From a virus: DNA of 64,000 bases. How positions within the stretch are numbered: the first letter of the stretch is position 1; every line of letters starts with the position of its first letter. The notes beneath the pieces were generated by a model. The model worked only from the letters and a program-made list of their open reading frames with translations. It was not told the DNA's origin and searched no databases. Location of the stretch: UHGV virus genome UHGV-1366123; one strand, written 5' to 3'. Both the position numbers and the translations under genes were made by a program. Shown here piece by piece: positions 745 to 61,935 of this stretch.

Positions 745-1827
745 ATGCGATACATCCTCGACAAACTGATAATCTTTCTCACAATAATACGATACAAACT
801 TTGGCGATTTCCAATAAACGATGACGGAATAATCGATTCAGTTGTGCTTGATAACCACGAGACACTCACGATAAACGGTTGGAAGCCACTTTCTTCTGTA
901 CATCTAAAAGCTGTTCATGACATATTGGAGGTCGGTGCAGGTGAGTACAAGGTGAGTGGATCTGTCAATCATCTCGTCTATTCTTCCAAGAGTTCACTTG
1001 AAAGCTATCAACCTACGAAAGTCCGAGATCTCTCTTTAGGTGATATCTTAATGACTGTCGATGGTGCACGGAAAGTCTCTTCTCTCAAAAAGTCTCATCA
1101 ACAGATCGTGTTCGATTTATCTGTCGTGGATGAGACTTTGTCGTATTTCTCTGATGGCATACTTTCTCATAACTCTGTAATGAGTGGTATTTTCATTGCG
1201 TGGTACATCTTGACTAACTACGACAAGACCGTTCTTTGTACCAGTGTCAATGCAGACAAGGTCGATGAGCTTGTTGACAAGATTAACTCGATCTTTATGC
1301 ATCTTCCGTTCTATATGAAGCTCGGGATTGAAGTCGATAACGTATCCAAGAAGAAATGGGACAATGGTTGCAAACTGATCGGTGAAACTGCCACTGAGAA
1401 CTCTGGTGCAGGTGAAACCGCAGATCTTCTTTATGCTGACGAGTTTGCACTTATTGAACCAAACATCATCAACGAGTTCTTCCGTGTAGTTTATCCTACA
1501 CTTTCGGCAAGTAAGAAGTCGAAGATGATAATCACCAGCACGGCAAGAGGTATGAACAAGTTCTATCAGCTTTATCAAGATGCACTTGATGGTAAGAACA
1601 ACTTCAACCCAATAAGAATCGACTGGTGGGAAGTCGAAGGAAGGGATGAACAATGGAGACTTGACCAGATTGCAGACCTTGGTTCTGAAGCAGACTTTAA
1701 TCAAGAATATGGCAACTCGTTTATGAGTGGATCGACACTTCTTCTCTCCACTGCTGTCCTCAAGAAACTCGGGAAATACCAGAAGAAGTTCATAAATGGT
1801 GTGTTCTCGAATGACGGTTCTTTATGA
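745..1827 (+). CDS. terL: large terminase (TerL) middle fragment: a 143-aa intein C-fragment (Hint domain from block B to the terminal HN) fused to the ATPase core
   Basis: Hint block B (DNHETLTINGWKPLSSVHL) and blocks F/G (IVFDLSVVDETLSYFSDGILSHN followed by +1 Ser). After the intein the sequence is TerL ATPase-like: SVMSGIFIAWY (post-P-loop), Walker B LLYADEFALI, coupling motif IITSTARG. No Walker A is present in this ORF. Confidence 0.75.
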   Translation: MRYILDKLIIFLTIIRYKLWRFPINDDGIIDSVVLDNHETLTINGWKPLSSVHLKAVHDILEVGAGEYKVSGSVNHLVYSSKSSLESYQPTKVRDLSLGDILMTVDGARKVSSLKKSHQQIVFDLSVVDETLSYFSDGILSHNSVMSGIFIAWYILTNYDKTVLCTSVNADKVDELVDKINSIFMHLPFYMKLGIEVDNVSKKKWDNGCKLIGETATENSGAGETADLLYADEFALIEPNIINEFFRVVYPTLSASKKSKMIITSTARGMNKFYQLYQDALDGKNNFNPIRIDWWEVEGRDEQWRLDQIADLGSEADFNQEYGNSFMSGSTLLLSTAVLKKLGKYQKKFINGVFSNDGSL

Positions 1828-1879: not shown

Positions 1880-2698
1880 ATGATAGAAGATGTTCTCCTT
1901 GAATACGACCAGTACTTTTTTATTCACCCCAACTTTGAACTTCAGTGGTTTAAAGATGAGCGCAATGCGTTCGTTCTATCAATAGACATTGCGGAAGGTA
2001 AAGGAGGTGACTACACGATTATCAACTTCTTCCAAGTCCTTCCAATGACACCTTTAGAAATTGAAGGTGTGAAGATCTTCAACGACGAAGAATCATTCTT
2101 CAAGTTGGTACAAGTCGCCATGTTTAGATCGAACATGGTAGAAACACCAGAATGTGCAAATTGGCTGTATCATTTCATAAACGGTTACATGATACAGGAC
2201 AACTTGAAGATCGTTATCGAGAACAACTTTGAAGGGAATTACTTCCGAAACACACTAATGAACATTTATGGAGAACAGAATGAACTCGACGAAGATGTCA
2301 TATTCTGCAAGTTTCTCTATAATGCTCGAGACGATAACGCCCGAACTTTCAGAGTTGGGATTTATCAAACAGAACCCCGAAAGCAACATTCTTGTAAGAT
2401 ATTCTCCGATCAGCTAAAGAACAATCAACTTGTTCTTACTGAGTTTATGACAATTCAAGAAGCTATGACCTTTGCACGATCAGAAAAATCGTCTTCTTAT
2501 CGTGCAAGCTCGGGACATGACGATTGTGTTATGACGTGTGTAAACGTTGTAAACATTCGAGATATCGAAGAATGGTCAGAACTCGTGGAAATTGTCAGTG
2601 AAAATTGTACAAACGAGTTTTGGAAACTGGTCGACAAGAAGCTCGGGAAACAAGCCGAAAGAAACGACGAACTCGACATATCAGACTATTACGATTAA
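1880..2698 (+). CDS. terL: large terminase nuclease domain (RNase H-like) as a separate ORF
   Basis: FVLSIDIAEGKGGDYTII (first catalytic Asp region) and SSGHDDCVMTCVNV (C-terminal hDDxv motif). Own RBS ggaaggaATG; an in-frame stop lies at 1868, just upstream. Confidence 0.65.
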   Translation: MIEDVLLEYDQYFFIHPNFELQWFKDERNAFVLSIDIAEGKGGDYTIINFFQVLPMTPLEIEGVKIFNDEESFFKLVQVAMFRSNMVETPECANWLYHFINGYMIQDNLKIVIENNFEGNYFRNTLMNIYGEQNELDEDVIFCKFLYNARDDNARTFRVGIYQTEPRKQHSCKIFSDQLKNNQLVLTEFMTIQEAMTFARSEKSSSYRASSGHDDCVMTCVNVVNIRDIEEWSELVEIVSENCTNEFWKLVDKKLGKQAERNDELDISDYYD

Positions 2699-3384: not shown

Positions 3385-4881
3385 ATGATCAATTGTAAAC
3401 AGATCAGAGACAAGATGTCGGTGTCTTATTTCGACGAAAACGGAAACATTGCGATATCTGACATAACAATAGACGATCGTGAAAAGTACGTATGGACAAA
3501 GACAACCGAAGATGATAAGTTTCGTGATAAGACTTACGTATCCCAAGACGGATTTCCAGTTAAAAAGGAACGTAAGTCCTATCTCGACAAATATCGCAAG
3601 ATCGAGTTCTTGCTGTCTCTGCCAGAACGTTTACAAGCGAAGATTTTCTCAAACAATCAACCACGTAAGTTCTTCTGGGATATAGAAACCGAGGTGTTTG
3701 ATGATTTCCCCGATGCAGGAAACCCTGTGGGACGAATCTTCACGCATCAGTATTGTGATGAGTTCGGGAATGGTACTGTCATGGGGATCAAGCCACTTTC
3801 ACAGGTGCAAATCGAATCTATCGAACAGAAGATCAACGACTATCTTTCACAAATCACCGATAAAACACTTCATCAGAGGTATAAGTTCCGTTACATTTAC
3901 TACCCCGATGAGTTCACGATGAATAAAGACTTCGTCGAGAATCACGCAACACGGATGCCGTGTATTTTCGGCTGGAACGTGCTGAAGTTCGATACAAGAT
4001 ATCTCGTCAACAGGTGTAAGAAGACGAACATTGATCCTACGATTTTGTCCCCGAAGAGGATGCTTTACTCGACGATTGCGAAAGATAAGTTTGATCATTC
4101 ATCGAAAATTGAAATCGAACTTCCTCTTCATCGACCAATCATCGACTACATGCAAATCTTTGAGTTCTTTGATAGATCGATTAAGCAGAAGTCATCAATG
4201 TCACTCGACTTTATCGCATCGGAGATCCTTGGTGTCAAGAAGATCCATCATTCCGAAACTCTGATGGAACTCTATGAGAAGGACTATGAACGTTACGTGC
4301 TTTATGGTATCATCGATACCTTCCTCGTGGCGTTGATCGATAAGAAGTGCAGAACATTCGAATCAATGAGCGTTCTTGCAAACCTTCTACGTGTCGAAGT
4401 CGCTCAATCGATGTTCGTCAGTGTTGGGATCGAAACACTCTTGTGTGACTACTATTACAAGCATTACAACAAAGTGTTTGTAAAGGATTATGACAAGCAG
4501 ATTCCCGAAGGTGAAACTTACAGTGCAGGATTCGTTCTACAACCAGGTATTGGTGTTTATGACGGCATCGTCATCTATGACTACGAATCACTGTTCCCTT
4601 CAATTATGCAGATGTTGAACGTTGGTGAAGATGTTTACCTCGGTCATACCGATGATCAAGGTAAAACTTACGTGGACAAACTCGGTGAAGAACACGAACT
4701 TGACGAATCGATGTGTTATTCATCAAGTGGTGCAGTTTACTCAAAAAACAGAGATTCCGCAATTCGAACGATGATTTCGAACATGTTCAACAAACGAGTA
4801 GAAGCAAAACACAAAGAAGCAGAAATCAAAGCAGATATTAATCACTTAAAGCAGATATTAAAAGATAACTTCGGACATTAA
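3385..4881 (+). CDS. family-B DNA polymerase, N-terminal fragment (3'-5' exonuclease domain plus polymerase motif A only)
   Basis: Exo I FFWDIETEV, Exo II CIFGWNVLKFDTRYL, Exo III YGIIDTFLV, pol motif A IVIYDYESLFPSIM. The ORF terminates about 100 aa later, before motifs B (KxxxNSxYG) and C (YGDTDS). Confidence 0.7.
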   Translation: MINCKQIRDKMSVSYFDENGNIAISDITIDDREKYVWTKTTEDDKFRDKTYVSQDGFPVKKERKSYLDKYRKIEFLLSLPERLQAKIFSNNQPRKFFWDIETEVFDDFPDAGNPVGRIFTHQYCDEFGNGTVMGIKPLSQVQIESIEQKINDYLSQITDKTLHQRYKFRYIYYPDEFTMNKDFVENHATRMPCIFGWNVLKFDTRYLVNRCKKTNIDPTILSPKRMLYSTIAKDKFDHSSKIEIELPLHRPIIDYMQIFEFFDRSIKQKSSMSLDFIASEILGVKKIHHSETLMELYEKDYERYVLYGIIDTFLVALIDKKCRTFESMSVLANLLRVEVAQSMFVSVGIETLLCDYYYKHYNKVFVKDYDKQIPEGETYSAGFVLQPGIGVYDGIVIYDYESLFPSIMQMLNVGEDVYLGHTDDQGKTYVDKLGEEHELDESMCYSSSGAVYSKNRDSAIRTMISNMFNKRVEAKHKEAEIKADINHLKQILKDNFGH

Positions 4882-4884
4882 AAG

Positions 4885-5142
4885 ATGGAAATAAAGCTAT
4901 TAGGAAAGAAGATCCTCATTAAGCTCAATGAGGTCGAAAAGCAGGTCGATGGCTTCGAACTGGTACAACATAACGATGTAGACCAAACAGCAGGTGTCGT
5001 CACGAATGTTGGTATTGGTGTCACAGAAGTCAAAGTCGGTGATAAAGTAATCGTCAACAAGTTCTCTGGTATTGAGGTGCTTATCGAGGGTGATAAGTTC
5101 AAGGTAGTAGAGGAACACGAAATATTAATCATTGTAAGATAA
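4885..5142 (+). CDS. groES: GroES-like co-chaperonin
   Basis: 85 aa; LGKKILIKL...VKVGDKVIVNKFSGIEV...EHEILIIV matches the GroES pattern. Confidence 0.7.
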   Translation: MEIKLLGKKILIKLNEVEKQVDGFELVQHNDVDQTAGVVTNVGIGVTEVKVGDKVIVNKFSGIEVLIEGDKFKVVEEHEILIIVR

Positions 5143-5151
5143 ACAGACTGA

Positions 5152-6741
5152 ATGAACGCTGTAGATGTAAAAAGTGGATCAGAAGCCAGAGAGCTGATCC
5201 TCGTTGGTGCAAAGACGATCCACGACGTTGTTGGGTCTACTCTGGGACCTGGCGGTCGAAATGTCATCATCAAGCACAACACGTACGATGTACCACAGGT
5301 CACTAAAGATGGTGTGACTGTAGCAAGAAAGATGAAGCTACAGAACTATTGGCACAACATAGGCTGTCAACTCGTAAAGCAAGCATCAATGCGAACTGCA
5401 GTTGATGCAGGTGATGGAACAACGTCTTCTGTTGTGATGGCGTATACGATGATGAAACTAATCGACGGACTTCTAAATGAGAATCCCGAGATTGATGTTC
5501 ATCGACTTCGTCACGAAATGGAAAAGATGAAGGATGTTCTCATTGAAAAGCTTCGGGAAATCGCCACACCGATCGTTGATATTCAGCAGGTCTTCGATAT
5601 CGCAAAGATCTCCACGAACAATGATGAGAAACTTGCAGGTCTTCTTGCAGAGATCTATGGGAAGATCGGTAAAGATGGGATAATCGTTCTTGAACAATCA
5701 CAACTTTCTGATATCACCTATTCGATCGAATCTGGATTCCGATTTGATGGCGGTTGGCAGTCTCATTATTTCGTAAAGGACAAATCAAAGATGTCGTTTG
5801 GATCTGACGATTGTGCAATCTTCATCACAAATCACAAGATCCAAGACGGAAAGACGATGCTCTCGGCACTTTCAAGAATCTATGGTACAGGTGTCCGTGA
5901 CCTTTTGATCATTGCGGAAAACATCGAAGGTGAAGCACTATCGACCTTGATCGCCAATAACCAGAGTGGGAAGATGAACATTTGTCTCGTCAATCCACCA
6001 TATTACGGACAGAAGCGTGAAGAATACCTCACTGACCTCTCCATTTCTCTTGATATGAAGCCACTGATGGTGGGAGACCAATCCGTCACCCCTCTTTCGT
6101 TCACAGAAGAGTACTTCTCTTGCGGTCGAAGCGTCTTTGTGGATAAAAACACCACAACGATCAGAAATGACAAGGAAAGTGTATCGTCTGCCGTCGAAGA
6201 GCATATCTCAAATCTGAAGTCTCTTATGGATTCCGACGAGGAAGACAAGGAATGGATCGAGAAGAGAATAGCGACCCTAAGGTCATCAGTTGCCGTCATC
6301 AAGGTCGGTGGGAATTCAGAATCTGAAGTTTATGAACACAAGGATAGACTTGAAGATGCGATTTGTGCTATAAGATCAGCATACAAGGATGGAATAGTCG
6401 CAGGTTGTGGTATCACGTACCTAAGACTAATCTCTGCACTTGATCCTTCTCTTGACACGTTCCATATCTTGAAATCTGGACTTGAATCCGTGTTCAAGAA
6501 GATTATGATCAACTCATGCATATCAGAGGAAGAAGAATCGTCGATTCTCTACTTCATAGGTGAAGATGAAGCGTATGGTTATGATGCCAAGAAACGTCAG
6601 AAGTCGTATAACTCGATCCAAGATGGCATCATCGACTCGGCACGTGTTATAAAAAACTGTATCGAGAACTCGATATCGGTCGCTATCATGTTTATGATCT
6701 CTGACAACATCGTTATGGAAATCGATGAATCGATTATTTAG
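5152..6741 (+). CDS. groEL: GroEL-like chaperonin (Hsp60 family)
   Basis: 529 aa; AVDAGDGTTSSVVMAYTMM (GroEL ATP-binding DGTTT-like motif); equatorial/apical/intermediate domain pattern. Confidence 0.8.
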   Translation: MNAVDVKSGSEARELILVGAKTIHDVVGSTLGPGGRNVIIKHNTYDVPQVTKDGVTVARKMKLQNYWHNIGCQLVKQASMRTAVDAGDGTTSSVVMAYTMMKLIDGLLNENPEIDVHRLRHEMEKMKDVLIEKLREIATPIVDIQQVFDIAKISTNNDEKLAGLLAEIYGKIGKDGIIVLEQSQLSDITYSIESGFRFDGGWQSHYFVKDKSKMSFGSDDCAIFITNHKIQDGKTMLSALSRIYGTGVRDLLIIAENIEGEALSTLIANNQSGKMNICLVNPPYYGQKREEYLTDLSISLDMKPLMVGDQSVTPLSFTEEYFSCGRSVFVDKNTTTIRNDKESVSSAVEEHISNLKSLMDSDEEDKEWIEKRIATLRSSVAVIKVGGNSESEVYEHKDRLEDAICAIRSAYKDGIVAGCGITYLRLISALDPSLDTFHILKSGLESVFKKIMINSCISEEEESSILYFIGEDEAYGYDAKKRQKSYNSIQDGIIDSARVIKNCIENSISVAIMFMISDNIVMEIDESII

Positions 6742-10128: not shown

Positions 10129-10539
10129 ATGACGATCAAATCATACATCAATCAACTCGAAGACAGAGACATCATCCGAGCATATGTCGCCTGTGTGATA
10201 CACCAATACGAGGACAAAGTCGGAACTAAAGATCCCGATGAGTTCTTGAAACTGGAATATGAAGATGTTTCCAAACATATCGATGAAATAATCAAGAATG
10301 CTCGTACGACGTTCATGTGTTACGCCACTAATGAGGAGGAAATGGTAGAGTTCGTCAAGAGCGACGGATATATCGAACTTCTCCGAGAAGGAGGTGACTA
10401 TGAAGATGTCCTTCAAATGTACGGAGGTGATGAAAACGCAATGATGGTTGCTTACTTCTATGATCTTATAGAAGATGATGTGTTTGAACACGACGGTTAC
10501 TTTTTCTATATGATGGAAAATGACTACGAACGTGGATAG
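10129..10539 (+). CDS. acidic paralogue family member P1
   Basis: MTIKSYINQLEDRDIIRAYV...DGYFFYM; very D/E-rich. Confidence 0.55.
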   Translation: MTIKSYINQLEDRDIIRAYVACVIHQYEDKVGTKDPDEFLKLEYEDVSKHIDEIIKNARTTFMCYATNEEEMVEFVKSDGYIELLREGGDYEDVLQMYGGDENAMMVAYFYDLIEDDVFEHDGYFFYMMENDYERG

Positions 10540-10581
10540 CTTCCGCAACAAATAAAGAAACAATCTTAATAAGAAACAAAT

Positions 10582-10983
10582 ATGACCGCAGAAGAATATG
10601 TCGGATCGTTACCCGACAAAGATCTCATCTTTGCGTATATCAATTGCATCATCTTCGAATATCTCACAGGTGCGGAATTCGAAGATTTTGATATCTTCAT
10701 ATTCCACAAACAGTATGAAGATGTTAAAGATTATATCGATGCATTTGTGGAAGAAGCTCGTGATCGTGCACTCACCGACTACCCAATCACATCTGAAAAA
10801 GATGTTCTCAGATACTACGATGAAACTTGTTATGGTCATGAAAACGATCCAGATGTCGATATCCAAGAAGGAAGAAAGAGATTCGAAGATGATCCATTAG
10901 GAATGCTCCACCAATTACTCGATACGATGAGTGATAACTGGGCTGAATACAACGGTTATTATTTCGTGGTTGGTGCTTGGTAA
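10582..10983 (+). CDS. acidic paralogue family member P2
   Basis: MTAEEYVGSLPDKDLIFAYI...EEARDRALTDYPITSEKD...NGYYFVV. Confidence 0.6.
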   Translation: MTAEEYVGSLPDKDLIFAYINCIIFEYLTGAEFEDFDIFIFHKQYEDVKDYIDAFVEEARDRALTDYPITSEKDVLRYYDETCYGHENDPDVDIQEGRKRFEDDPLGMLHQLLDTMSDNWAEYNGYYFVVGAW

Positions 10984-11010
10984 TATAAAAAATCGTAAAA
11001 GAAAGAAACA

Positions 11011-11400
11011 ATGACTGTAAGAGAATACATCAACACATTTGAAGACGCAGGTCTCATTCTTGCGCATATCGAACTTGTCAAAGATGGGAAGTATGGGAAA
11101 GAAACCGTAGATTTTGATATCGACAACGATGAAATCGAAGATGTCAAAGACCAAGTCGATAAGCTCATATACAAATCATTCGATAGGTGCGTGTATCCAG
11201 ATCCAATAAGAACTGAGGAAGACATCTACGAGTATCTCAAGACTTGTGTTGGTTATGGTACTGATGATGATCCAACATACTTAGAATATAAGGCAATATG
11301 GGAAAAAGATCCATGGACTAAGTTCTTCCAATCGATTGACGAACAGTGTCCTTGGTTTGAACAAGATGGTTACTACTTCATGGACACTTATAACATGTAA
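11011..11400 (+). CDS. acidic paralogue family member P3
   Basis: MTVREYINTFEDAGLILAHI...DPWTKF...DGYYFMD. Confidence 0.6.
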   Translation: MTVREYINTFEDAGLILAHIELVKDGKYGKETVDFDIDNDEIEDVKDQVDKLIYKSFDRCVYPDPIRTEEDIYEYLKTCVGYGTDDDPTYLEYKAIWEKDPWTKFFQSIDEQCPWFEQDGYYFMDTYNM

Positions 11401-11419
11401 AAAGGAAAGAGAAAGAAAT

Positions 11420-11821
11420 ACGACTGCAGAACAATATATCAAGACACTACCAGATTCGGAGCTTATTCTCTCTTATATCGCATTGGTAGTATCTGAAGAC
11501 ATCGAAGGAACGGAAGGTATGGATGCCGACATCAACAACGATGAATACGAAGATGTCAAAGACCAAGTCAACACACTCATCGAACAAGCTCGTGATCGTG
11601 CGATCATCAATTATCCTATAAGATCCGAAGAAGATACTCTCAAATATTTCGAAGACACCTATGGTGAATTCATTGAGAATAATGAGGATCTCCAAGAATA
11701 TGAGAAGAAATGGAAAGAAAACCCATGGAAGGAATTCAAAGATTCTCTTAATGAAGTGAAAGCTTATTACAAGAATGGTAAGTGGTACGAACACAATGAT
11801 TATTACTTCATAGTCTGGTAA
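11420..11821 (+). pseudogene. acidic paralogue family member P4 with ATG->ACG start
   Basis: Paralogues begin atg-act-g..; here it reads aat-ACG-act-gca (T-to-C at start-codon position 2). The track ORF 11336-11821 only extends upstream by chance, inside P3. Confidence 0.4.
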
Positions 11822-11848
11822 TTCGTATTCATAGAAAAGATAAAGATT

Positions 11849-11891
11849 GACGTGGCGAAATGTTTGATTTCGCCACGTCTGTATATAAAAG
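11849..11891 (+). promoter_or_regulatory. terminator hairpin plus TGTATATAAAAG promoter-like motif (cassette boundary)
   Basis: gacgtggcgaaat...atttcgccacgtc stem, then tgtatataaaag. Confidence 0.45.
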
Positions 11892-11907
11892 AAAATTCTG
11901 ATATAAA

Positions 11908-12252
11908 ATGAAAACGAGATTAAGAGAATATATCGAAACGCTACCAGATTCATACATCGTTTCTCAATATCTTACATGTGTTGAACTTGGATATACGCAC
12001 GATAAAGAGATTATCGATCTATACGAACAACATGCTCATGATCGTCTACTCATCGATCGTCCAATACACACTAGTTATGACGTTATGGAATACTTTGATG
12101 ATACCTTTCCCGATTGGGAAAACGATCCAGATCTCGTAGAAGAAAGAAAGAAATGGGAAGAAGATCCATGGGGAAAATTATACAAAGTACTCGACGAAAT
12201 GGGTACTTGGTGTGGATATGGTGGTTGTTATTTCTTGGCTGAAAAACGATAA
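11908..12252 (+). CDS. acidic paralogue family member P5
   Basis: MKTRLREYIETLPDSYIV...FPDWENDPDLVEERKKWEEDPWGKL. Confidence 0.6.
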   Translation: MKTRLREYIETLPDSYIVSQYLTCVELGYTHDKEIIDLYEQHAHDRLLIDRPIHTSYDVMEYFDDTFPDWENDPDLVEERKKWEEDPWGKLYKVLDEMGTWCGYGGCYFLAEKR

Positions 12253-31657: not shown

Positions 31658-33427
31658 ATGGCAAAAACTATCTTTAACGGAAACGCAAAGAGTTTTTCAG
31701 AGATCAACCAATTCATAGGAAACTTTGATAAATCTGGTGGTCTGCTCTCTGAACACACAACAGCAGAAATCCGAGAATGGGTTCACACAGGTTCTTATGT
31801 CCTCAACGCCTGCATATCGGGATCAATCCTCAAAGGTGTACCTTCTGGCAGAATCATCACAATATCTGGTGATCCAAAGACTGGGAAATCCTTCGTTCTT
31901 CTGTCATGTATGGCACAGTTACAAAAGAAGGGTTATTTCTGCATCTACTTCGACACCGAGAACGCCACAAGCTATGACAGATTCATAGCACAAGGTGTTG
32001 ATCCTCAAGGCGTACGTGTGATTGTACCAGAGACTGTGGCAGACATCACTGTACAGCTCACACAGCTCACACAATCACTGCTTGACACCAAGAAGGAATA
32101 CGAGCAGAAGAACAAGAAGCTTTCCGAAGATGAAAAGCTCGAAATCCCAAAGGTTGCAGTTTTCATCGATTCACTTTCTGCACTGAACTCATCGAAGCAA
32201 TTCTCCGATGCTCTAAGTGGTGAAATGAAGCAGGACATGGGGACAGTAGCCAAGGAAATCAAGCTTCTGTTCAACATGATCACACCTCGTCTTGGGAAGC
32301 TCGACATCCCAATGCTCTGTACTGCACATGAATACGAAGCCGATCAAGGGTATCAGAAAGTTCGTGTAACAAGCGGTGGTAAAGGGATCACTTACATGGC
32401 ATCTGTTCTTGTATCTCTTCGTAAGAAGTTCGACCGAGATGAAAACAAGCAGAAGATGGGTGTCATTGTAACGGCAGGGATCAACGAATCTCGATTCTCG
32501 ATTCACAGACCAGTAGAGTTTTACATCTCCTTCACAAAGGGGCTTAATGCTTACATGGGTTTGCAGGAATTCGTATCATGGAACATCTGTGGGATCGATC
32601 GAGGGAGAATGGTGGCGTATATCGACACTGCATCAGAGATATCGAAGAAGATCGGTCTTGACAAAACGAAGACTTACTCGACGAAGGAAATAGAACGAGA
32701 ACTTGCACAGGCAAAGAAGCAAACGTTCTATCAATCTCTGTCATACGACCTCTACAATGGTCATATTCGAATTGTATCGTCAGATAACACGATCGTACTG
32801 CCCGACCTCGTACGTATGATGGAGCAAGATGGGTTTGACTTCACAGAAGATCTCGAAACAAAGACGATCAAGGACAAACTGATCGTGCACGGCATCTATT
32901 CTGATGAAGCAATGGCGAAGATGATCTCGAGCTATATCGACAGCGGTGATGCTTATATGGTCGGGAATGTGAAACTCGACGTTGCAAAGAATCAGAAACT
33001 CAAGTTCAAGAAGTCGATCATCCAGTCGATAAATGATAATTCTTACGAGGAAAGACTCGTGGAAGTCGAATCTGAACAGACGCAGGAAATCAACGAAAAG
33101 AAGGATCAGAAATTCGTATTCACCGAGAAGTTCTTCACAGAAAGATTCGAAGATGGAAAGCTTATCCCATCGTCTGTCGAGAAGGTCTGTTTCCCCACAC
33201 CTACTGGGACTGAATGGGTAGTCCGACATCTCAACAAGTCCTTCAAGAATCTGGAAATCTTCAACAAACATGTCTTCACTGACGAAATCTTGAAAACGCT
33301 TGATGAGAAGGTCATGATTCCTCTGTTCTCTTACAGAGATAAAGAATATGAGGACATGGACGGTGATCTTTCAAACACCGATATTGAAGAACTTTCCGAA
33401 ATGGACAAGATTATGAGCGGATTATGA
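31658..33427 (+). CDS. RecA/UvsX-like recombinase with an extended C-terminus
   Basis: Walker A GDPKTGKSFVLL, Walker B VAVFIDSLSAL. Confidence 0.6.
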   Translation: MAKTIFNGNAKSFSEINQFIGNFDKSGGLLSEHTTAEIREWVHTGSYVLNACISGSILKGVPSGRIITISGDPKTGKSFVLLSCMAQLQKKGYFCIYFDTENATSYDRFIAQGVDPQGVRVIVPETVADITVQLTQLTQSLLDTKKEYEQKNKKLSEDEKLEIPKVAVFIDSLSALNSSKQFSDALSGEMKQDMGTVAKEIKLLFNMITPRLGKLDIPMLCTAHEYEADQGYQKVRVTSGGKGITYMASVLVSLRKKFDRDENKQKMGVIVTAGINESRFSIHRPVEFYISFTKGLNAYMGLQEFVSWNICGIDRGRMVAYIDTASEISKKIGLDKTKTYSTKEIERELAQAKKQTFYQSLSYDLYNGHIRIVSSDNTIVLPDLVRMMEQDGFDFTEDLETKTIKDKLIVHGIYSDEAMAKMISSYIDSGDAYMVGNVKLDVAKNQKLKFKKSIIQSINDNSYEERLVEVESEQTQEINEKKDQKFVFTEKFFTERFEDGKLIPSSVEKVCFPTPTGTEWVVRHLNKSFKNLEIFNKHVFTDEILKTLDEKVMIPLFSYRDKEYEDMDGDLSNTDIEELSEMDKIMSGL

Positions 33428-33692: not shown

Positions 33693-35159
33693 GTGGGGGC
33701 TTTTCTGGAAATAAAAAGCAGAAAGCCCCCACTAACTATCTTCAAAAATTACAACAAGAAAATGGCTGTTGGATTTGGTCAGAACTTTGAGAACATAGCT
33801 TACGTTTACATAAACTCACAACCTCACCTTTGGAAATCTGTTGATCATGAGTTCTTCAAATCTCCAACTCTGAAGGCACTATCAAAGCTCACCAAACAAT
33901 TCTACGAAAGATTCCACGAGCAGATATTCTCTCCCGAAAATCCAAGTGTAGAGCAGATCGAATATCTCGTAATGGAAGACAAAAAGTCGTTTATGATTGA
34001 CTTGAACATGTCAGAGGACGACAATGCGAAGACTTTCATTGCGAACGCATCATACATCATCAAGACAAACATAAAAGCATTCTCTGAGGAATGGCTTGAC
34101 GAGACTGTTGGTGCATGGATAATGTGGCAAAACAACCAGCGAGCATATAAAGAATCAATCTCTTATATGCAGACACAGAATATCACACCCGAGAATGTAA
34201 AGGAAGTGATCTCCAAAGCACGAGAGATTGTGGTCAGAGGTTCATCTCTATCGTTTGGTGATGAGGAGGTCTTTGACTTCTATGATCCTCAATCTCACAA
34301 GCAGATTTCCGTGGAAGACTACATCGACACTGGCTACGAGATGCTCAACCAGATGCTCACGGAAGACAGACATAACGGATTCATACCTGGTACTCTCAAC
34401 ATGTTCATGGGTTCTACAAACTCTGGGAAATCGGTGATCCTTGGTAATCTTGCACTCAACATTTCAAGATCGGGTAAAAACGTGTTGTTTGTATCTGTGG
34501 AAATGTCAATCCCAAGAACTTTCCGACGAATCGGCTCTAACGCTTTTGACATTCCAATATCGGAATATGACACGTTCTCAAACGACGACGCACTTCTATC
34601 AGAATCTATACAAAAGTTCAGAGCAAAGAACATGAACATTGGTGTACCACCAGGCAAGTTCCTCGCCTTGAAGTTCCCAAAGACTGGTGTCTCAAACATT
34701 TATGGAACTGCAAAGCGACTGGAAGAGAAGCATGGGATAAAGTGGCATGCAATCGTAATTGACTATTTCACGGAACTACAAAACGATCACGGCACGGCAC
34801 AAGATAAAACGTATCAATACCACAAGCAAAATGCTGATGATCTCTACCAAATGGCTTCAGAGACGAATTGGTGTGTGATAACTGCCCATCAGTTAAATCG
34901 AGGTGCTTTGAACATGTCCGATATGACACTTTCATCTGTTGCTGAATCTTACGGTATTGTTTACAGATGCGATAGTGTTATCGGGATGATTGCCACTGAG
35001 AAGATGCAGGTCGAACACACGATGTACATGAAGAATCTGAAATGTCGTGATTCGAAATACAAGAACTTCTTCGCAAAGTTTGATACAGAATTCTCAAAGA
35101 TGAGAATCATAGAAACTGGGGAACTCATAAGCCCAGAAGATTATCAGATCTTCACATAG
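33693..35159 (+). CDS. DnaB-like replicative helicase (gp41-like)
   Basis: Walker A MFMGSTNSGKSVILGNLALN; VLFVSVEMS; RecA-fold C-terminal domain. Confidence 0.7.
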   Translation: MGAFLEIKSRKPPLTIFKNYNKKMAVGFGQNFENIAYVYINSQPHLWKSVDHEFFKSPTLKALSKLTKQFYERFHEQIFSPENPSVEQIEYLVMEDKKSFMIDLNMSEDDNAKTFIANASYIIKTNIKAFSEEWLDETVGAWIMWQNNQRAYKESISYMQTQNITPENVKEVISKAREIVVRGSSLSFGDEEVFDFYDPQSHKQISVEDYIDTGYEMLNQMLTEDRHNGFIPGTLNMFMGSTNSGKSVILGNLALNISRSGKNVLFVSVEMSIPRTFRRIGSNAFDIPISEYDTFSNDDALLSESIQKFRAKNMNIGVPPGKFLALKFPKTGVSNIYGTAKRLEEKHGIKWHAIVIDYFTELQNDHGTAQDKTYQYHKQNADDLYQMASETNWCVITAHQLNRGALNMSDMTLSSVAESYGIVYRCDSVIGMIATEKMQVEHTMYMKNLKCRDSKYKNFFAKFDTEFSKMRIIETGELISPEDYQIFT

Positions 35160-42892: not shown

Positions 42893-43846
42893 TCATTTAG
42901 TCGTAGTTTGTTTCTTCTTGATGATCATTCTAAAATAAGTCTGCTCGCCATTCACAGACAAATATTTCCCGTCGTTTCCCCTTCTGGATGTCACAATCTC
43001 AAATTGTTGAGGATTGAATTTATACAAGAATGTTATCGGAACCCCCATGCAACCATTGTAATCTCGTGGTATATCCTTGACCCTATCGACATTTATACCA
43101 TCATAATTGTCGTATTTGGGATATTCATGTTCGTGTCCATAGTAGTTTTTTGTAAGCGGAATATCTTCATGTCGCATAGAGTGGTTCAAATTCGTAAACC
43201 ACAGACAATTATTGGTGGGCGTGATCATATTACCAGATTCGTCCATCCATGTTTTTTTCATGTAGGGTTCATAATGGGCTGGTATGATAAACCCAGAAAA
43301 TTCGTTCCCACGATTTACACCAAGCCATGCCTTACCATCTTGAACGGATTTGAAGATTTCTTTGTTGGTGATAGAATTGATATTCCCAATAATGAGAAAG
43401 AGCTTATCGTATCTGATCAGTTGTGTCATATATTCACGGAACAACGAAAATGGTGGATTTGTAACAACTATGTCAGATTGTTCCAGCAAATCGATACTTT
43501 CTTGACTACGAAAGTCGCCATCACCATTGAAGTAAACAACATCAGCTGTCTTTGGATCTGTATCGACGAGTTCTGTCCCTGTGTATTCAAAGAAAAAACC
43601 ACGACTGTTTTCCTTATAACAAGATGCAATCACCTTCCGAAGTCCCAATTCTTTGAAATTGGAAACGAAGTATTTGAAAAAGTTACTCGTCAGAGGATCA
43701 TCACAATTGCAATACACAACTTTCCCTTTAAAATGGCTTTCATAATGTCGCAATTCTCTTTCGATATCAATAAGTTGCGTATAGAACTCGTCGTTCTTTT
43801 GCTTTCTAGCATTACGAAGTAACTTGCTGGTTGTTGCCCTTGCCAT
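42893..43846 (-). CDS. DNA N6-adenine (amino) methyltransferase
   Basis: DIVVTNPPF catalytic motif IV (NPPF), DEFYTQ N-terminal motif, CNCDDP. Confidence 0.55.
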   Translation of the reverse strand: MARATTSKLLRNARKQKNDEFYTQLIDIERELRHYESHFKGKVVYCNCDDPLTSNFFKYFVSNFKELGLRKVIASCYKENSRGFFFEYTGTELVDTDPKTADVVYFNGDGDFRSQESIDLLEQSDIVVTNPPFSLFREYMTQLIRYDKLFLIIGNINSITNKEIFKSVQDGKAWLGVNRGNEFSGFIIPAHYEPYMKKTWMDESGNMITPTNNCLWFTNLNHSMRHEDIPLTKNYYGHEHEYPKYDNYDGINVDRVKDIPRDYNGCMGVPITFLYKFNPQQFEIVTSRRGNDGKYLSVNGEQTYFRMIIKKKQTTTK

Positions 43847-43849
43847 ATT

Positions 43850-44300
43850 TCCGTCTTTTAATATAAATCTTCAGAATAGAGAATCGTCTTATCTTTTACA
43901 TCTTCTATTTGATCAGCTTCTTTAGCTATCTTACAAACTTCATACCTATCAACAAATATCACTTTAGAAGTGTAGAAGCCTTATCGTATGTGAAAAATCT
44001 GCGTTTTATCCAGTTCTCACTTCTTGTTTCAACCTGCCATTACTTTTTAGGAACACGAGGTTCGGTCATCCATAAGAGGGCAGTCCGCAAGCGTAAATTC
44101 GGTGCTACGAACACCTACTCGATTTTTTATATGTTAGACAGTTTGAAGTTTTCTTTGTCCTTCAATGAGAATGTTCTTCGAAGCGTTTATATCTCTGTCG
44201 TGATATTCACCACATTCGGGACAAGTCCAAAACCTATCACCGAGTTTCAAGTCTTTCTTCTTGTAACCACAACATAAACAAGTCTTTGAACTTGGATAGA
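43850..44300 (-). ncRNA. putative omega-RNA/right-end region of the TnpB element (boundaries unknown)
   Basis: Inference only: omega-RNAs of IS200/IS605 TnpB overlap the 3' end of tnpB and extend into the downstream non-coding DNA; a 287-bp non-coding stretch follows the tnpB stop. Confidence 0.25.
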
Positions 44301-45276
44301 ACCTATTGATAAGAACAACTCGCTTATCATTCATAAGAGCCTTATATTGCAATATCGACTTGAACCGATAAAATCCAGACTCTTGGATAGCATTCGCAAG
44401 ATAACGATTTCCAAGCATCCCTTTAATATTCAAGTCTTCCATGAACACCACGTCGTATGATTTGAGGATCTCGTTCACAACTGAGTGGATGTAGTTCTCT
44501 TTCTTGTTCGTTATATTCGCAATCACTTTTGCAAGTCTGATTCTCTGTTTGTTCCTATTGTTTGAACCTTTGACCTTTCTGGATAGTTGACGATGAAGTC
44601 TTGTGATCTTCTTTTCCTCCTTCTTGAAGAAGTGTTTGTTTTCAAACACAAATCCATCAGAGGTTATGACGAAATCTTTCACACCAAGATCAATACCGAC
44701 TTGCTTGTTGGTCTTTTCAAACTTTACAAATTCTGCTTCGGGAATGTCGATAAGGATTGATAAGAAGAAATTCCCACTCTTGGTTTTCGAGAGAGTTGCA
44801 CTTCTTATGTTATCTTTGTACTTCTGTAAGCGTTTGTGATACAAGTCAGAACAACGGAATCTGAGTTTTTGAAGAGAAGTGATTAGTGTTATATGTTTCG
44901 TTTCGAAAGTGTTCCTCTTTGAAATAGCATTACGAGGAAACAATGCTGATTGTTTGTCTTTCTTTGATTTAAACTTTGGAAAGCCTTTATGATGATTGAA
45001 GAAGTTTTGATAAGCACCGACCATCTGTTTGATTGCTTGGTTCATCACCTTTGTGTTCTGTTCTCTCAACCAAGCATATTGTTCATCTTTCAACAATGAT
45101 CCGTGGAAATATTTCGATAGATCGCTTTCGCTTAGGTTTGTCTTGTCCGTTTCATAAGCCTTTTGTTTTCTATCGAGCATGTGATTATAGACAAAACGAT
45201 AAGCACCAAGAACCTTGTTGAGTTCTTGTTCCTGCGCTTTGTTTGGATATAACCTTATTTTAATCGCTCTAAACAT
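44134..45276 (-). CDS. tnpB: TnpB (IS200/IS605-family OrfB, RNA-guided RuvC-like endonuclease)
   Basis: N-terminus MFRAIKIRLYPNKAQEQELNKVLGAYRFVYN; C-terminal zinc finger CLCCGYKKKDLKLGDRFWTCPECGEYHDRDINASKNI. Confidence 0.8.
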   Translation of the reverse strand: MFRAIKIRLYPNKAQEQELNKVLGAYRFVYNHMLDRKQKAYETDKTNLSESDLSKYFHGSLLKDEQYAWLREQNTKVMNQAIKQMVGAYQNFFNHHKGFPKFKSKKDKQSALFPRNAISKRNTFETKHITLITSLQKLRFRCSDLYHKRLQKYKDNIRSATLSKTKSGNFFLSILIDIPEAEFVKFEKTNKQVGIDLGVKDFVITSDGFVFENKHFFKKEEKKITRLHRQLSRKVKGSNNRNKQRIRLAKVIANITNKKENYIHSVVNEILKSYDVVFMEDLNIKGMLGNRYLANAIQESGFYRFKSILQYKALMNDKRVVLINRFYPSSKTCLCCGYKKKDLKLGDRFWTCPECGEYHDRDINASKNILIEGQRKLQTV

Positions 45277-61473: not shown

Positions 61474-61935
61474 ATGGCGAAGAAGGTTGTAGAGAACATG
61501 CTGTGGTCTACAGAACGTGTAGAGAAGCTCATACAGGAATTCAACGACAAGGGTGTACTTCCCAAGAAGAATCCGTTTTATAGTGGTGATGTTCGCTTGA
61601 GGAAACCACGTATCAACTTCTCATACACAGAGGATGAACTTCTTGAACTTGCAAAGGTTCAAGATTCTGTCTTGTACTTCTCAGAAAATCTGGCCAAGGT
61701 AAAAACTGATGATGGTATCAAGCATATCAAACTGAGACCATATCAGACAAGAATCATCCAACAGCTTCAGTATTACAGACACAACGTCATCCTTGCTTCA
61801 CGTCAGATTGGGAAAAGTAAAGGCTGGGGATCTGTTATAAATGGACTCGAAGGTGACTTCAAGATTTCTGACCTCTTCCCTCGAACACTCATCAATAGAC
61901 TAAGATCAAAGCTGTATTCGACGATCTATGGGTAA
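61474..61935 (+). CDS. terL: large terminase N-terminal fragment (N-extein with Walker A) fused to a 39-aa intein N-fragment
   Basis: LRPYQTRIIQQL...NVILASRQIGK, then SKGWGSVINGLEGDFKISDLFPRTLINRLRSKLYSTIYG (Hint block-A-like). Its partner, the IntC-plus-ATPase ORF, is at 745-1827. Confidence 0.7.
   Translation: MAKKVVENMLWSTERVEKLIQEFNDKGVLPKKNPFYSGDVRLRKPRINFSYTEDELLELAKVQDSVLYFSENLAKVKTDDGIKHIKLRPYQTRIIQQLQYYRHNVILASRQIGKSKGWGSVINGLEGDFKISDLFPRTLINRLRSKLYSTIYG

Follow-up and report, generated by a model that had tools for sequence, protein, structure and literature searches.

A probable two-subunit family-B DNA polymerase in a human oral phage, divided at the tip of the fingers and encoded by genes about 23 kb apart

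A roughly 150-kb phage that recurs in human oral metagenomes carries a family-B DNA polymerase (PolB) gene that appears to stop halfway. The gene lies in a 64-kb stretch of the genome, the whole of which was analysed and is called the window here; positions are those of the window unless a locus is named. A first-pass annotation of the same DNA had suggested a split polymerase whose second half would have to be encoded elsewhere, and had named a sequencing error at about position 4880 and a pseudogene as the other possibilities. The locus therefore poses two questions: is the early stop real, and if so, where is the rest of the enzyme?

The gene occupies positions 3385-4881 (+) and encodes 498 aa between an ATG start and a TAA stop. 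Alignment to RB69 gp43 placed the Exo I motif FWDIET (DxE) at aa 97-102 (3673-3690, +; RB69 NFDIEV), the Exo II motif GWNVLKFDTRYLVNR, which conforms to the pattern Nx2-3F/YD, at aa 196-210 (3970-4014, +; RB69 GWNVESFDIPYVYNR), and the Exo III motif YGIIDTFLV (Yx3D) at aa 307-315 (4303-4329, +; RB69 YNIIDVYRV). Motif A, DYESLFPS, with the catalytic aspartate, follows at aa 399-406 (4579-4602, +) and fits the pattern DxxSLYPS with a phenylalanine at the position of RB69 Tyr416. By this alignment and the motif positions, the chain ends 99 aa past the motif A aspartate, close to the 100 or so estimated in the first-pass annotation. The C-terminal tail (4774-4878, +) is the equivalent of the first fingers helix, in which FNKRVEAK aligns to RB69 FNQRKEHK, including the triphosphate contacts R482 and K486, and the chain ends at the fingertip. 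The product, hereafter the N-half, thus contains the N-terminal domain, the 3'-5' exonuclease, the beginning of the palm, including motif A, and the first helix of the fingers. Pfam detected DNA_pol_B_exo1 and DNA_pol_B, the latter at profile positions 26-142 of 453 only. The TAA stop (4879-4881, +) falls at a natural subunit boundary, 3-4 nt before the ATG of groES (Cpn10; 4885-5142, +), and groEL (Cpn60; 5152-6741, +) comes next, the order of genes that had been described before.

Motifs B and C were found nowhere in the 64-kb window by regular expressions applied to all six frames. A tblastn search of the window with the fused polymerase of Flavobacterium phage MaF61 matched the N-half alone, and tblastn searches with sequences of Sphingomonas phage PAU and with P0001 and P0003 did not find a C-half in it either. 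A C-half profile HMM, run against the window with filters off, gave a best match of E=0.06, to GroEL, which is noise. The earlier statement that motifs B and C are missing from the window therefore holds by regular expression, tblastn and profile HMM alike. In megablast the window matched no GenBank phage.

The missing part was located upstream of the window. An alignment of the C-half family was turned into a profile HMM, and this was used to scan upstream along the IMG/VR contigs of the phage. No C-half was detected by the HMM in the 20 kb upstream of the N-half; it appeared one step further upstream, as a 400-aa ORF matched with E about 1e-98 in six loci (L071-L076), for example at L072:4743-5945, outside the window. 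The ORF contains motif B (KVALNSIYG, pattern KxxxNSxYG), motif C (YADTDS, pattern YxDTDS) and SKKKY (pattern KKRY), followed by a thumb region and a C-terminal LIAFDPLW tail. The tail resembles the terminal LIAFKPLF of MaF61 and is a candidate clamp-binding tail. Pfam DNA_pol_B matches the C-half from profile position 156 onward. Five IMG/VR contigs of 145-150 kb carry both halves (IMGVR 3300045988_118132, _122716, _111166, 3300006251_000001 and 3300009964_000001). They are close relatives with 89-94% nucleotide identity to the window, and on all five the C-half and N-half genes share a strand, the former about 23.0-23.1 kb upstream of the latter; some 20 unrelated genes separate them. Projected onto the present genome, the C-half site lies about 19.7 kb before window position 1, the sequence being that of the closely related contigs. 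The wider search proposed in the first-pass annotation, for an ORF with motifs B and C and a thumb, thus succeeded on the very contigs that carry the N-half. In IMG/VR the C-half matched only contigs of the phage and its close relatives (89-94% identity), and the 10 kb downstream of the window contained structural genes only and no polB. A large family of stand-alone C-halves (P0001-P0128), reached through the C-terminal part of MaF61, was also considered as the source of the partner and was rejected; its members occur on different contigs, 150-430 kb long, and no contig of this phage is among these.

Variants of the two genes bear directly on whether the stop is real. The identical 498-aa product was called on eight contigs, and one ENA contig is 99.96% identical to the window at the DNA level. 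Seven IMG/VR contigs, 89-94% identical to the window in nucleotides, encode the N-half over residues 1-498 at 98-99% amino-acid identity. Across eight variants of the N-half gene 219 nucleotide sites are variable, 190 of them (87%) at third codon positions, and the stop codon is at the same place in all eight. N-half relatives at 48-49% identity also stop there, at 492-493 aa. The ratio pN/pS is 0.028 for the N-half (eight variants) and 0.032 for the C-half (seven variants), and all variants of both halves are open through to the same stop. Purifying selection on both halves is strong.

A frameshift from sequencing or assembly, or a premature stop, near position 4880 could in principle have cut short a single full-length polB, and the truncation itself is the sole observation in its favour. 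We exclude a frameshift because the stop is conserved in eight variants that differ at 219 sites; the exact product moreover recurs on eight contigs, and groES begins directly past the stop. The window holds no polB-like sequence downstream of the stop or anywhere else, and the missing part exists as an intact, separate ORF 23 kb away. An error of this kind is next to impossible. The N-half might instead be a decaying remnant in a phage replicated by another polymerase, which would agree with its lack of motifs B and C and hence its inability to polymerise alone. A pN/pS of about 0.03 in each half shows that the N-half is no pseudogene, the matching C-half being as constrained as the N-half itself. 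The concentration of variable sites at third codon positions, the intact Exo motifs and motif A, and the length kept in relatives at 48% identity all argue in the same direction, and decay has only the faintest chance of being the right explanation. Neither of the two fall-back scenarios raised in the first-pass annotation therefore survives.

The position of the break was defined by aligning both halves to intact polymerases. On the profile phrog_262 (856 positions) the N-half matched 12-496 and the C-half 484-841, and on the fused MaF61 polymerase (994 aa) the corresponding ranges were 16-543 and 556-994, the latter reaching the last residue. On RB69 gp43 they were 112-486 and 544-794, and on T4 gp43 182-500 and 524-780. 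RB69 112-486 aligns to aa 97-475 of the N-half, after which 23 more N-half residues follow; this tail maps to about residue 551 of MaF61. The C-half starts some 43 aa before the motif B lysine, with RB69 544 aligned to its aa 29. The helix equivalent to that of R482 and K486 is thus on the first chain and the motif B helix on the second. The match ranges on these references therefore place the chain break at the tip of the two-helix fingers hairpin. Judged from the alignments, the halves are complementary and tile MaF61 with no gap, missing segment or extra domain.

We conclude, with a probability of roughly 0.9, that the ORF encodes the N-terminal subunit of a functional two-subunit replicative PolB, whose C-terminal subunit is encoded about 23 kb upstream and which assembles non-covalently. 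Both genes are present on the same contigs, they are complementary, and their catalytic motifs are intact and held by strong purifying selection. The N-half and C-half would be translated as separate chains that come together non-covalently as one enzyme. Its catalytic site would be composite, the N-half contributing the motif A aspartate and the C-half the aspartates of palm motif C; the C-half would also supply motif B on the second helix of the fingers, along with KKKY, the thumb and the LIAFDPLW tail. Because motifs A and C are on different chains and the fingers hairpin is shared between them, we infer that neither chain alone has a complete polymerase site and that the two proteins must assemble into one enzyme. 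If they behave like phage 25 gp43A/43B, split Pfu polymerase and PhiKZ DNAP-N/C, as is probable, the two halves associate physically and are active together.

Two other ways of using the halves have to be weighed against assembly of two chains. The products could be joined into a single chain, by a split intein or by RNA trans-splicing (fractured genes, MIJ3 polB). The same genome appears to have a split intein in its large terminase, and split-intein polB genes occur in other jumbo phages (PMC6892783). The ends of the present halves argue against joining, since the N-half runs only about 23 aa past the K486 equivalent, the C-half begins about 43 aa before the motif B lysine, and the tiling of MaF61 leaves no residues over for the two parts of an intein. 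A Cys/Ser-led Hint block is absent from the end of the N-half, as is an HN(S/T/C) junction from the start of the C-half, and Pfam finds only DNA_pol_B domains in the halves. Joining into one chain is therefore extremely unlikely. Alternatively, each protein could work on its own, the N-half as a separate proofreading exonuclease and the C-half as the core of a polymerase with another partner. The 23 kb between the genes, which could be regulated separately, is compatible with this, as is the finding of halves 281 kb apart on opposite strands in the phage LR756504. Independent action is nevertheless very unlikely: the established RB69 structure, taken with the alignments, indicates that the palm is divided and the fingers hairpin shared, leaving no complete polymerase site on either chain; congruence between the N-half tree and the C-half tree suggests co-evolution; and the split PolBs tested so far form stable complexes. 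A two-chain enzyme thus remains our reading of the locus.

The genes around the two halves were also compared. Upstream of the window (L003 391-4086 and L066 584-1369) there are genes of nucleotide metabolism: between the halves lie PurA-like, PurB-like, MazG and HU-like genes and a gene judged from its sequence motifs to be thymidylate synthase-like, and a guanylate kinase gene is found just upstream of the C-half gene. The 1.5 kb directly upstream of the C-half gene (L072:3205-4742, outside the window) is non-coding, is packed with roughly 10-bp-phased, iteron-like repeats of the AAGACAAT type and contains three 127-nt repeats at a spacing of 205-239 nt. No tRNA and no credible Rfam family was found in this spacer, a possible origin of replication or regulatory array. 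Also outside the window, L072:8463-9866 encodes a 467-aa protein with DUF2828 and DUF7788/vWA-like domains, an architecture that we take to be Ro60/TROVE-like. The chaperonin pair, which is immediately downstream of the N-half gene here, is immediately upstream of the fused polB in MaF61 (L001 5354-7619); as the chaperonin genes adjoin polB in both, the linkage has been kept whatever the split state. In relatives and in cyanophage Syn1 (L044, L054, L166), polB or the C-half gene is followed by uvsX and a DnaB-type helicase gene. This synteny was considered as a pointer to the C-half and was abandoned, as it is broken here: the uvsX-dnaB pair (31658-33427 and 33693-35159, both +) follows a putative capsid gene, and the replication module has therefore been rearranged.

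The large terminase gene of the window appears to be in three pieces, at 61474-61935 (+), 745-1827 (+) and 1880-2698 (+), the first two of which are about 60 kb apart. The first is a 153-aa ORF ending in ...ILASRQIGK/SKGWGSVINGLEGDFKISDLFPRTLINRLRSKLYSTIYG and a stop, with Walker A and then a 39-aa tail, and matches the TerL profile phrog_5989 at positions 91-170. The first 143 aa of the second are Hint-like, ending ...DGILSHN/S, with a weak Pfam Intein_splicing match (E=0.1), after which the ORF resumes phrog_5989 exactly at position 170. The third is a separate ORF with terminase nuclease-like motifs (phrog_24361). The arrangement resembles a split intein whose N-part is short and whose C-part is long, presumably as in AceL-TerL. 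Elsewhere in the window, a minus-strand block of lower GC and reversed skew contains a 380-aa TnpB/OrfB-like ORF (44134-45276, -), whose sequence has a C-terminal CxxC...CxxC zinc-finger pattern, and an adjoining 317-aa ORF (42893-43846, -) with an NPPF motif of the kind seen in N6-adenine DNA methyltransferases. At 10129-12252 (+) five small paralogous ORFs of about 114-161 aa stand in tandem; the motifs common to them are ...Y(I/V)xxLxDxxLIxxYIxxV... (N-terminal) and (N/D)GYYF (C-terminal).

The same break was found in PAU, in Lak megaphages, in phages of 630-640 kb, one of which has its halves 281 kb apart, and in hundreds of metagenomic protein clusters. The best 120 relatives of the C-half profile were all stand-alone proteins, of 366-414 aa, and the N-half ends at the same point in Lak-C1, LR756502, LR756504 and PAU gp105. 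In Lak-C1 and LR756502 no C-half was found within 20 kb on either side of the N-half, and in LR756504 the halves were at 255,899-257,320 (+) and 538,016-539,218 (-). A 167-kb environmental relative has a 405-aa C-half (P0136, recovered by protein search) more than 10 kb from its N-half, among other genes than those here and beside a Pif1-like helicase. The distance between the genes thus goes from 2.4 kb in PAU, through 23 kb and a reversed order in the present phage, to 281 kb and opposite strands in LR756504. Such dispersal may allow the subunit genes to be regulated separately. Simple neighbour-joining trees of the N-parts and of the C-parts, with modest support at the deeper nodes, were congruent and placed MaF61 as sister to the group of the present phage, inside the split forms. 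This suggests either an old split with later re-fusion in MaF61 or repeated splitting at a hotspot. A fuller history is possible and is offered tentatively: the fingertip split may be ancestral to a clade of large and huge phages that takes in the oral 150-kb phage, PAU, the Prevotella Lak megaphages and the 630-640-kb phages, after which the genes would have drifted apart and MaF61 would have re-fused them.

In the literature that we searched, the breadth of the split among huge phages and the dispersal of its two genes were not described. Within a large clade of mostly uncultured phages, human-associated megaphages among them, the fingertip split is the common condition, and so extends beyond a few T4-like phages of Aeromonas and Acinetobacter. 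When a polB in this phage group looks truncated, it should be annotated as a subunit of a replicase encoded by two genes, neither as a pseudogene nor as an assembly error, and the whole genome should be searched for its partner; the two PolB genes can be very far apart. As natural split sites tolerate production in fragments, this is of use to replisome biochemistry and polymerase engineering.

Several known split polymerases can be set beside this one. One is that of PAU, in which gp105 (487 aa) and gp110 (404 aa) are annotated as split in GenBank, with the same split position and similar subunit sizes. The PAU genes are 2.4 kb apart in N-to-C order, the N-half is 27% identical to that of the present phage, and by the trees PAU belongs to the same wider clade. 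The halves also match PHROG families end to end, the N-half phrog_2062 (6-497 of 502) and the C-half phrog_1918 (8-369 of 382), which are annotated merely as 'DNA polymerase' and are silent on pairing or gene distance. Among cultured phages MaF61 is the closest relative for each half (32-33% identity); its polB likewise adjoins groES/groEL but is a single gene, and the split is therefore not obligatory in the lineage.

In PhiKZ, DNAP-N (gp82) and DNAP-C (gp50) form a stable 1:1 complex seen by cryo-EM (PMC13648687). [quoted passage not shown] The archaeal PolB of Methanothermobacter is split in the palm and encoded by genes 85 kb apart (Kelman et al. 1999, as cited in PMC3061061), and the archaeal Pfu enzyme, artificially split at the fingertip, was reconstituted from separate fragments (PMC3061061). 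Both splits indicate that PolB tolerates production as two chains.

A close precedent in protein architecture is gp43A/43B of the T4-like phages 25, 31, 44RR, 65 and 133, for which Petrov et al. (2006, 2010, as summarised in PMC3061061 and PMC2988022) describe a natural split at the fingertip, and in which the two proteins co-purify and are active (PMC2988022). The first-pass annotation had drawn this comparison, and it is upheld by a break at the same fingertip site, with one chain carrying the Exo motifs and motif A, the other motifs B and C and the thumb, and no intein. Identity of the present halves to T4-type gp43 is only about 25%. The gp43A and gp43B genes are adjacent and in N-to-C order; according to the same summaries, 2 bp to 3 kb separates them, and in some cases a homing-endonuclease gene lies in the gap (PMC3061061, PMC2988022). 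Here, by contrast, the C-half gene comes first, about 23 kb upstream, a layout that had not been anticipated. Fingertip-split PolB has already been published and its halves are catalogued in PHROGs, so the known principle is unchanged. Judged by sequence, the present polymerase is of the gp43A/43B type at the protein level and departs from it in the adjacency and order of its genes, a difference of gene layout and not of protein.
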